A DNA stretch of 13,925 nucleotides from a virus. The translations under genes were made by a program, and so were the position numbers. A model generated the notes under the pieces. It was not told the origin of the DNA and made no database searches. It was given only the letters and a program-made list of their open reading frames with translations. Below, one piece after another: positions 4,921-5,085 of the stretch. The DNA lies in the IMG/VR virus record IMGVR_UViG_3300009285_008166; one strand, 5' to 3'. Positions within the stretch are counted from its first letter, which is position 1; the number at the start of each line of letters is the position of its first letter.

Positions 4921-5082
4921 TTAGCCGCGCTGTGCCGCCTCCGACGCCCGCGACGCCTCCGACGCCCGCGACGCCCACGACGCCCACAACGCCCACGACG
5001 ACGACGACGCCCACGATGCCAACGACGCCCACGCCGCCCACGCCGCCCGCGACGTCGACGCAGCTTGTATAGCGGCGGTCAT
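4921..5082 (-). CDS. Small repeat-encoded ORF (copy 3), 53 aa: MTAAIQAASTSRAAWAAWASLASWASSSSWALWASWASRASEASRASEAAQRG. ATG at 5082..5080 overlaps the TGA of the RNA ligase gene. Its TAA lies 3 nt before the ATG of the 4486..4917 gene.
   Basis: Hand translation. It is translationally coupled at both ends. Not in the ORF track; 4901..5179 there is a different frame. Confidence 0.4.
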   Translation of the reverse strand: MTAAIQAASTSRAAWAAWASLASWASSSSWALWASWASRASEASRASEAAQRG

Positions 5083-5085
5083 GGC
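4924..5085 (-). repeat. Triplet-periodic GC-rich repeat element, copy 3
   Basis: Same unit structure and conserved end. Confidence 0.8.

Follow-up and report, generated by a model that had tools for sequence, protein, structure and literature searches.

A repeat whose three copies open at the stop codons of unrelated genes of a prophage-like element: a possible MIRU-like intercistronic minisatellite

Introduction

The DNA studied here is IMG/VR virus record IMGVR_UViG_3300009285_008166, a contig of 13,925 nucleotides that was analyzed over its whole length (the window). A preliminary description of this sequence had drawn attention to three copies of a triplet-periodic repeat, in each of which a small open reading frame (ORF) opens on the stop codon of the gene that precedes it. 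What is the function of a repeat placed in this way at the junctions of an array of genes, and is the small ORF present for the sake of its peptide, for the passage of ribosomes, or simply as a consequence of the composition of the repeat?

We have examined the anatomy of the copies, their junctions with the flanking genes, their variation in other assemblies and their coding potential. The reading that we favor, tentatively, is that they constitute a lineage-specific intercistronic minisatellite resembling the MIRU repeats of mycobacteria, in which the internal ORF would keep translational coupling across the insert, and whose DNA is hypervariable and probably recombinogenic. The best reading of their setting is a co-directional, translationally coupled array of genes within an integrated prophage-like mobile element.

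Results

Anatomy of the repeat copies

The three copies are termed R1, R2 and R3, and the reading frames inside them small ORFs 1, 2 and 3. All are present on the minus strand where the preliminary description had placed them (Table 1), except that the ends it gave for R2 and R3, at 3440 and 5085, take in 3 nt of the upstream gene. Aligning the three copies, as that description had proposed, was done using MAFFT and reveals a common head of 27 nt with the sequence [A/G]TGACCG[C/A]CGC[C/T][G/A]TAC[A/G]AGC[C/T]GCGTCG. The identity is 24/27 between the heads of R1 and R2 and between those of R2 and R3, and 21/27 between R1 and R3. A 25-nt IUPAC pattern for the head, TGACCGMCGCYRTACRAGCYGCGTC, has exactly three matches in the window, and this number is unchanged on allowing up to 3 mismatches. 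The expectation calculated from 200 dinucleotide-preserving shuffles was 0.00, against the three observed.

Behind the head, each copy comprises 10-15 degenerate units. A period of 9 nt was found in each tract by Tandem Repeats Finder (spans 8-114, 3324-3394 and 4942-5054), with the plus-strand consensus CGACGCCSA, and the unit on the minus strand is GCG TCG NNG. The GC content of the tracts is 74-78%, compared with 54-66% in genes, and by construction the tract contains no stop codon in any of the six frames. The tails are copy-specific and show no conservation, each containing an in-frame stop at or near the start of the next gene, and the copies have no terminal inverted repeats. R1 is truncated by an assembly break, since the window spans the whole contig; the contigs L009 and L010 likewise end within R1 (contigs and loci other than the window are given by L numbers).

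Two structural explanations were considered and rejected. The window allele of R3 alone has a canonical G-quadruplex motif; R1, R2 and the other alleles of R3 have none. The z-scores for RNA folding are inconsistent across the copies (−2.3, +0.4 and −2.8), providing no indication of a shared structure. A search of Rfam gave no match in the repeats at E ≤ 1.

Junctions with the flanking genes

The conservation of the head begins exactly at the sequence RTGA, and in all three copies this is the point at which the TGA of the upstream gene is overlapped by the ATG or GTG of the small ORF. The genes that end there are mutually unrelated, coding for a 92-aa basic protein, a 111-aa RHH-like regulator that matches the PHROG annotation 'transcriptional repressor', and a 292-aa RNA ligase that matches Pfam RNA_ligase. 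Homologues of the ligase align up to residue 288 of its 292; the protein thus has its C terminus at the native length, so that R3 occupies the native stop of the ligase. The proposal that the element brings its own stop and start is borne out in 3/3 copies and in every population variant, in all of which the RTGA overlap is retained. The equivalent junction in a ligase relative of 65% identity has a plain GTGA overlap and no element, and may be regarded as an 'empty' coupled junction.

All credible genes of the window lie on the minus strand, and each of the three copies is located between co-directional genes. The gaps listed in our table of junctions range from −26 to +13 nt, and most of the genes have no Shine-Dalgarno (SD) motif. 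Overlaps of 4 nt occur at 4/15 junctions between annotated genes, to which the small ORFs contribute a further two. Where the gap exceeds 20 nt, an SD-like run precedes three of the five downstream genes (GGAGG for a 908-aa homologue of major vault protein (MVP), GGGAGA for the 92-aa gene and GGGGGA for a 161-aa gene). Judged from this organization, the gene array appears to be tightly packed for translational coupling.

The downstream junctions differ between copies. At R3 the poor ribosome-binding site noted earlier for the 143-aa gene corresponds to the lack of any SD motif within 20 nt upstream of its start, the sole GGAGG being ~23 nt away, and the small ORF stops immediately before this gene, as had been described (Table 1). 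If small ORF 3 were untranslated, the 143-aa gene would be located behind 161 nt of SD-less untranslated RNA, the sole such case in the window. At R2, by contrast, the start of the MVP-like gene is 58 nt past the stop of small ORF 2. Because of this gap, of the terminator-like hairpin and of the MVP gene's own GGAGG, R2 cannot be a bridge; it ends a translational unit and does not join two, and the MVP gene is not dependent on coupling there. The coupling bridge suggested in the preliminary description therefore agrees with R3 and with the variant junction of contigs L021 and L022 (see below), where stop and start overlap, and fails at R2.

Inspection by eye reveals a promoter-like arrangement for the MVP gene, comprising a TTGACA within the hairpin at 3301-3315, an 18-nt spacer and TACAAG, although a promoter scan found no sigma-70-type promoters. 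A second terminator-like hairpin is present at 462-474 (minus strand), just past the MVP gene. This suggests that the MVP gene is its own transcription unit.

Table 1. Coordinates of the repeat copies, the small ORFs and the signals at their junctions
Feature	Position	Strand	Remarks
R1	1-136	minus	head 136-110, beginning GTGA; then 12 or more degenerate 9-nt units
Small ORF 1	GTG at 136-134; runs off contig start	minus	>45 aa, VTDAVRAASATSWAS...
TGA stop of 92-aa basic protein gene (411-133)	133-135	minus	overlapped by GTG of small ORF 1 (GTGA)
R2	3315-3437	minus	head 3437-3411; 9-nt tract ~3416-3322; TAG stop 3317-3315
Small ORF 2	3437-3315	minus	40 aa, MTAAVQAASTPLMSASASSVSASSASWASRASSASWASAT
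TGA stop of 111-aa RHH-like regulator gene (3769-3434)	3434-3436	minus	overlapped by ATG of small ORF 2 (ATGA)
Terminator-like hairpin	3301-3315	minus	GCGCTTGACAAGCGC then GCTTTGTTCG; directly after stop of small ORF 2
GGAGG Shine-Dalgarno of 908-aa MVP-like gene	3263-3267	minus	
R3	4921-5082	minus	head 5082-5056; 9-nt tract 5054-4942; TAA stop 4923-4921
Small ORF 3	5082-4921	minus	53 aa, MTAAIQAASTSRAAWAAWASLASWASSSSWALWASWASRASEASRASEAAQRG
TGA stop of 292-aa RNA ligase gene (5957-5079)	5079-5081	minus	overlapped by ATG of small ORF 3 (ATGA)
ATG of 143-aa gene	4915-4917	minus	3 nt past TAA of small ORF 3

Population variants of the repeat

Other assemblies containing this region (ENA/MEGAHIT and Logan, from three sequencing runs) were found through look-ups of exactly matching proteins, and the ENA copies derive from groundwater (PRJNA292723). 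The same heads and tracts were recovered in JGI, MEGAHIT and Logan assemblies of the three runs. Since independent assemblies contain them, the repeats are not the artefact of one assembly. R2 does not differ between the two samples represented by L009 and L105.

R3 is a hypervariable minisatellite. Four alleles of its interior were found in three samples, with ORFs of 49, 50 and 53 aa and one that is partial, and the flanks of these alleles differ by no more than 3 single-nucleotide polymorphisms (SNPs) over 2-8 kb. Upstream of the repeat, 3 of 7,957 positions of L021 differ from the window, and L022 and L023 each differ at 2. Two R3 interiors co-occur in each of two runs (L024 versus L021, and L025 versus L022). 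In L023 the order of the window, i.e., ligase, R3 and 143-aa gene, is kept with a different R3 interior.

In L021 and L022, which come from two runs, the R3 head leads instead to a gene encoding a 351-aa protein with HNH and RNA-ligase parts. The TGA of the small ORF (49 aa) overlaps the ATG of this gene, so that ATGA is present at both ends of the element. The preliminary description had also raised the possibility of an insertion or recombination element that targets gene junctions. The two alternative right-hand neighbors of one head and the hypervariable interior lend support to recombination at these sites, and the copies may be points of breaking and joining between gene blocks. L021 could be explained as an R3 × R1 deletion of a 4.8-kb block if the HNH-RNA ligase gene normally follows R1. 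The sequence upstream of that gene that could be recovered from other contigs amounts to a 1,040-nt fragment.

The alternative right side occupies positions 7995-12707 of L021 (ENA contig k127_156083). It carries the HNH-RNA ligase fusion, followed by two small ORFs, three opposite-strand genes that include one for an AcrVA2-like protein, and a tyrosine integrase gene. The open frame of the integrase leaves the end of the contig in a G-rich tract resembling the Pro/Thr (PT) type, which may be another copy of the repeat. At 7995-9155 of the same contig the gene caller had carried the HNH-RNA ligase upstream across the repeat in the Gly/Val frame, to a length of 386 aa rather than 351. Repeat tracts can thus produce spurious N-terminal extensions in annotation and mislead gene callers. 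They also break metagenome assemblies: contigs L009, L010, L024, L025, L104 and L106, from several assemblers, all end inside a repeat.

Distribution of the repeat

The head motif gave no matches in IMG/VR viral contigs. Five matches in JGI metagenomes and five in GTDB species genomes are all attributable to chance, and no 9-nt tract follows any of them. The element is missing from all the relatives of the RNA ligase (46-65% identity, L001-L008), in which no gene besides the ligase shows synteny. Tracts of the generic 9-nt type are common among viral contigs of high GC content; four or more (GCGTCGNNG) units were found at 77 IMG/VR loci (L027-L103), mostly in ordinary low-complexity coding sequence on the C-rich strand, and the head was found at none of these. 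Further copies, for which a search of related phages had been suggested, were lacking from the viral, metagenome and genome collections searched, and because head and tract together were found nowhere else the element is lineage-specific as far as these collections show.

Many of the 77 loci are within ~100 nt of the end of a contig, and several contigs contain two separate loci. It seems that GC-rich minisatellites with a 9-nt unit often cause viral metagenome assemblies to break.

Coding potential of the small ORFs

The N termini of the three small ORFs conform to M/V-T-[A/D]-A-[V/I]-[Q/R]-A-A-S-[T/A], verifying the earlier consensus, and are followed by sequence rich in Ser, Ala and Trp. 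Just 9-10 N-terminal residues are conserved. The reading frame is preserved between copies as had been claimed, but because stop codons are absent from all six frames of the tract, neither the openness of the ORF nor the preservation of its frame carries much weight.

The Ser/Ala/Trp frame stops before or at the next gene in 3/3 complete contexts, for which the chance is roughly ~0.05 given the lengths of the tails. The Gly/Val frame instead enters the next gene, by 16 nt for the 143-aa gene and by 93 nt for the MVP gene, or becomes fused with the HNH-RNA ligase. The Ser/Ala/Trp frame gives a codon score of 0.16-0.35 (0.15-0.45 for real genes); scoring of codon usage in six frames found four of them coding-like, and so does not discriminate. 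The changes from unit to unit interchange Ser, Trp and Arg in the Ser/Ala/Trp frame; read in the Gly/Val and Pro/Thr frames, they are either synonymous or conservative.

The small ORFs were not called by gene callers. A profile of the small peptides, run against 5.8 billion clustered proteins and 1.84 billion protein representatives, found no homologue, and comparison with Pfam and the PDB gave nothing meaningful. AlphaFold2 predicts one continuous helix for small ORF 3 with a mean pLDDT of 76.7, a result that is uninformative for an Ala-rich peptide. Taking the placement of starts and stops together with the pattern of substitution, the Ser/Ala/Trp frame is probably translated, though the peptide sequence would not be what selection sees.

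Genomic surroundings

Region 4025-7918, taken together with L021, encodes a macro domain, two RNA ligases, a deoxynucleoside kinase, an AAA ATPase and the AcrVA2-like protein. The macro domain is a weak Pfam match, below the curated cut-off, and there is a stronger match to the PHROG annotation 'phosphatase'. The neighborhood is likely to be rich in nucleic-acid-repair and counter-defense functions. No virion structural genes were seen, and the term 'phage' is therefore not established for the element.

The MVP-like gene (530-3256, minus strand) encodes a homologue of the eukaryotic major vault protein, with the Pfam domains Vault_3 and MVP_shoulder, in the context of a mobile element. Its nearest database relatives are bacterial and 44-48% identical, and the few that have a source name are from Myxococcota-type metagenome-assembled genomes. 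The gene has a GC content of 0.65, and 0.81 at third codon positions (GC3), compared with 0.57 in the neighboring block. At the far end of the window (13372-13923, minus strand) an incomplete ORF for a SulP sulfate permease covers positions 114-269 of the 380 in the Pfam profile and stops abruptly beside a gene of the YspA/SLOG family (12977-13369). Its appearance is that of a host gene disrupted by integration of the element, or of the element's boundary.

Sequence of similar composition is also present inside genes of the window. A 59-nt segment occurs at 9899-9957 and 10978-11036 with 93% identity, in adjacent minus-strand genes for a 583-aa AAA_23/SMC-like protein and a 204-aa protein, where the product is a Pro/Thr/Ala-rich linker (PATPEAAPAAT...). 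Complementarity to the intergenic repeats is ~72-84% for these PT tracts within genes and for a third at 11190-11245, which in effect makes them the same low-complexity sequence in the opposite orientation.

Discussion

Each of the three repeats begins on the stop codon of a different, unrelated gene, and where R3 is followed by a gene without an SD motif the internal ORF ends just before the start of that gene. On the reading that we tentatively favor, ribosomes finishing the upstream gene would re-initiate at the overlapping ATG or GTG in the head, would then translate across the 120-160-nt insert, and would terminate beside the start of the downstream gene (3 nt short of it at R3, and at the 4-nt ATGA overlap in L021) and re-initiate there. 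With re-initiation at both ends, the insert would therefore leave unbroken the termination-reinitiation chain of an array poor in SD motifs. The Ser/Ala/Trp peptide would then most likely be a by-product. The repeat itself could act as a substrate for recombination, swapping or deleting the gene cassettes that it separates.

A number of observations weigh against this reading. R2 is not a bridge, given its 58-nt gap, the terminator-like hairpin and the downstream GGAGG. Since 4/15 of the annotated junctions are already 4-nt overlaps, three further overlaps are no more than modestly surprising (about 0.02-0.04). An open ORF is trivial in such a repeat, and the Gly/Val frame has a codon score of 0.51-0.76, above that of the Ser/Ala/Trp frame. 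The six substitutions in the head are distributed 2/2/2 over the codon positions, with no signature of coding, and the variation in the tract falls at codon positions 1 and 2, position 3 being G in 92% of cases versus 35% in real genes. With its unconserved tails the element does not have two defined ends, and a machinery for its transposition is not evident. Furthermore, it is known from one lineage only, and the alternative junction of L021 and L022 could be an assembly chimera or a path taken by the assembler.

The recombination of cassettes might be taken to be the principal function, a possibility that we consider the weaker one. The copies would then serve as portable junction modules, transparent to translation, through which accessory and counter-defense cassettes are exchanged or deleted by homologous recombination between copies. 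They would be integron-like in function without attC hairpins, the stop, start and bridging ORF serving to express any new neighbor. If so, the two right-hand neighbors of the R3 head (the 143-aa block and the HNH-RNA ligase) would represent recombination caught in the population.

Other explanations dispense with the bridge. The small ORFs could be a family of paralogous small-protein genes, each with the conserved MTAAxQAAS N terminus and a hypervariable, Trp-rich (x-Ala-Ser)n body, that make a functional peptide such as a membrane-active or counter-defense effector; the ATGA overlaps would then be this element's normal packing of genes. Starts and stops that are properly placed in every context accord with this, as do a Ser/Ala/Trp codon score inside the range of real genes and accessory or counter-defense surroundings (the macro domain, the RNA ligases and the AcrVA2-like gene on L021). 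Of the three differences between the heads of R2 and R3, moreover, two are silent and one replaces Val with Ile. However, R1 and R2 differ in their heads by Ala/Asp and Gln/Arg. The G-dominated third position, with change concentrated at positions 1 and 2, is the opposite of purifying selection, and the GC content of the tracts is far from that of the genes. No homologue was found in the protein collections, in Pfam or in the PDB, the ORFs were missed by gene callers, and the single helix predicted by AlphaFold2, which might be cited in favor of a folded product, says little for an Ala-rich peptide. We therefore regard a functional peptide as unlikely. The absence of homologues, the even distribution of head changes over codon positions and the location of the tract variation similarly give no support to the family of leader-plus-variable-core peptides that was first suggested. 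Translation in another frame, as a minus-strand Gly/Val extension or hydrophobic peptide or as a plus-strand Pro/Thr linker, appears very improbable. The Gly/Val frame has the top codon score, and in L021 it is continuous with the HNH-RNA ligase ORF, where a gene caller followed it to 386 aa; the Ser/Trp changes are synonymous in the Gly/Val and Pro/Thr frames, and real genes of the window use such sequence for PT-rich linkers. Yet the Gly/Val frame has no conserved start and enters both the 143-aa and the MVP gene, the Asp/Ala frame contains no start codon, a common stop is missing from the Pro/Thr frame, and any plus-strand reading is antisense to an unbroken block of minus-strand genes.

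It is also conceivable that the ORF is incidental, and that the repeat is a non-coding cis-element presenting 10-15 binding sites, each a GCGTCG core with a variable spacer of 3 nt, either in the DNA or in the polycistronic mRNA. Certain RHH proteins, omega and ParR among them, bind short repeats arranged in tandem, and the protein bound here could be the adjacent RHH regulator, whose gene is directly upstream of R2, or another array-binding protein. An invariant hexamer with a variable spacer is just what binding-site arrays have; the outlying base composition, and constraint at the level of nucleotides rather than codons, point the same way. This leaves unexplained why conservation should start exactly at RTGA on three unrelated stops, and why the Ser/Ala/Trp frame should always stop before the next gene. 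Moreover, a 9-bp period does not fit the helical repeat, a hypervariable interior would not be expected of a tuned operator, and at the RNA level the inconsistent fold z-scores, the lack of an Rfam match and a canonical G-quadruplex confined to one allele of one copy offer no alternative. We give this explanation little credence, about as much as a functional peptide. Lastly, collapsed or chimeric assembly of low-complexity sequence might be suspected, since contigs break in the repeats and the interior of R3 varies between assemblies. With the same heads and junctions in JGI, MEGAHIT and Logan assemblies of three runs, and an identical R2 in two samples, this is scarcely credible.

Comparison with known systems

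The repeats share some properties with other mobile or repetitive sequences. Like the attC sites of integrons, they are elements of variable length located right after the stop of each cassette ORF, in one orientation and at the borders of exchangeable cassettes, and a tyrosine recombinase is encoded nearby, on L021. However, in place of the imperfect inverted repeats and hairpin of attC there are direct 9-nt repeats with erratic folding scores. An integron integrase would be adjacent and divergently transcribed; the sole integrase seen here, at the end of L021, lies at a distance and is convergent, and there is no attI or Pc. The Rickettsia palindromic elements (RPE), attributed to Ogata and colleagues in 2000, are reportedly short selfish repeats that are compatible with translation. 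The likeness lies in a short selfish repeat surviving in gene-dense DNA through that compatibility; RPE are palindromic and in frame inside genes, whereas the repeat studied here forms a separate cistron between genes. Elements of the MITE or REP type have terminal inverted repeats or a palindromic stem-loop, neither of which was found in the copies. Neither a modifying enzyme among the neighbors nor a homologous precursor was found, so the small ORFs do not resemble the precursors of RiPPs. Ordinary (GCGTCGNNG)n coding tracts have the same type of 9-nt unit, and the 77 IMG/VR loci are often at contig ends. Most of the internal tracts examined there are inside a long ORF on the C-rich strand, while those of the window are intergenic and antisense to that.

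The preliminary description knew of nothing comparable, but there is a close functional analogue in the mycobacterial MIRUs, which are intercistronic repeats with ORFs overlapping the flanking stop and start codons (PMC12548453, PMC3184786). They are dispersed repeats of 40-100 bp in mycobacterial operons (PMC12548453 and PMC3184786, both citing Supply 1997). Their internal ORF is coupled at −4 nt, minimizing the impact of insertion (PMC12548453), and there are tetranucleotide direct repeats at filled sites, with ORFs that overlap the adjacent genes of the polycistron (PMC3184786).

The repeats share several features with these. The location between cistrons of an operon, co-oriented with the flanking genes, is found in 3/3 copies, and so is the start of the internal ORF on the upstream stop, here as RTGA. 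On the 3′ side there is the ATGA overlap in L021 and L022 and the 3-nt gap at R3; the agreement of R2 is partial, with its 58-nt gap. The tetranucleotide repeats at the ends of MIRUs can be likened to ATGA...ATGA in L021. Their variable-number tandem repeat (VNTR) polymorphism between strains has a counterpart in the four interior alleles of R3, with flanks differing by no more than 3 SNPs.

There are also differences. The repeated MIRU unit is 40-100 bp long and is repeated whole with its own ORF; this is not the arrangement found here, where each copy has a single 27-nt head, 9-nt sub-units and an unconserved tail. Nor is R2 coupled downstream. MIRUs belong to Mycobacterium and this repeat to a groundwater prophage-like element, and the likeness considered here is one of organization. 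Because architecture and host differ, and the size of the repeated unit disagrees, we do not consider the repeat to be a member of the MIRU family; by analogy, it would work like one. If our favored reading is correct, the MIRU solution, by which a selfish or recombinogenic repeat persists in a dense operon because it brings a stop, a start and a bridging ORF, is not confined to mycobacteria, and the same logic arose independently in a mobile element. It would then provide a testable example of a small ORF whose role is the delivery of ribosomes, not a protein, within a repeat that might also be a hotspot for the shuffling of accessory-gene cassettes.

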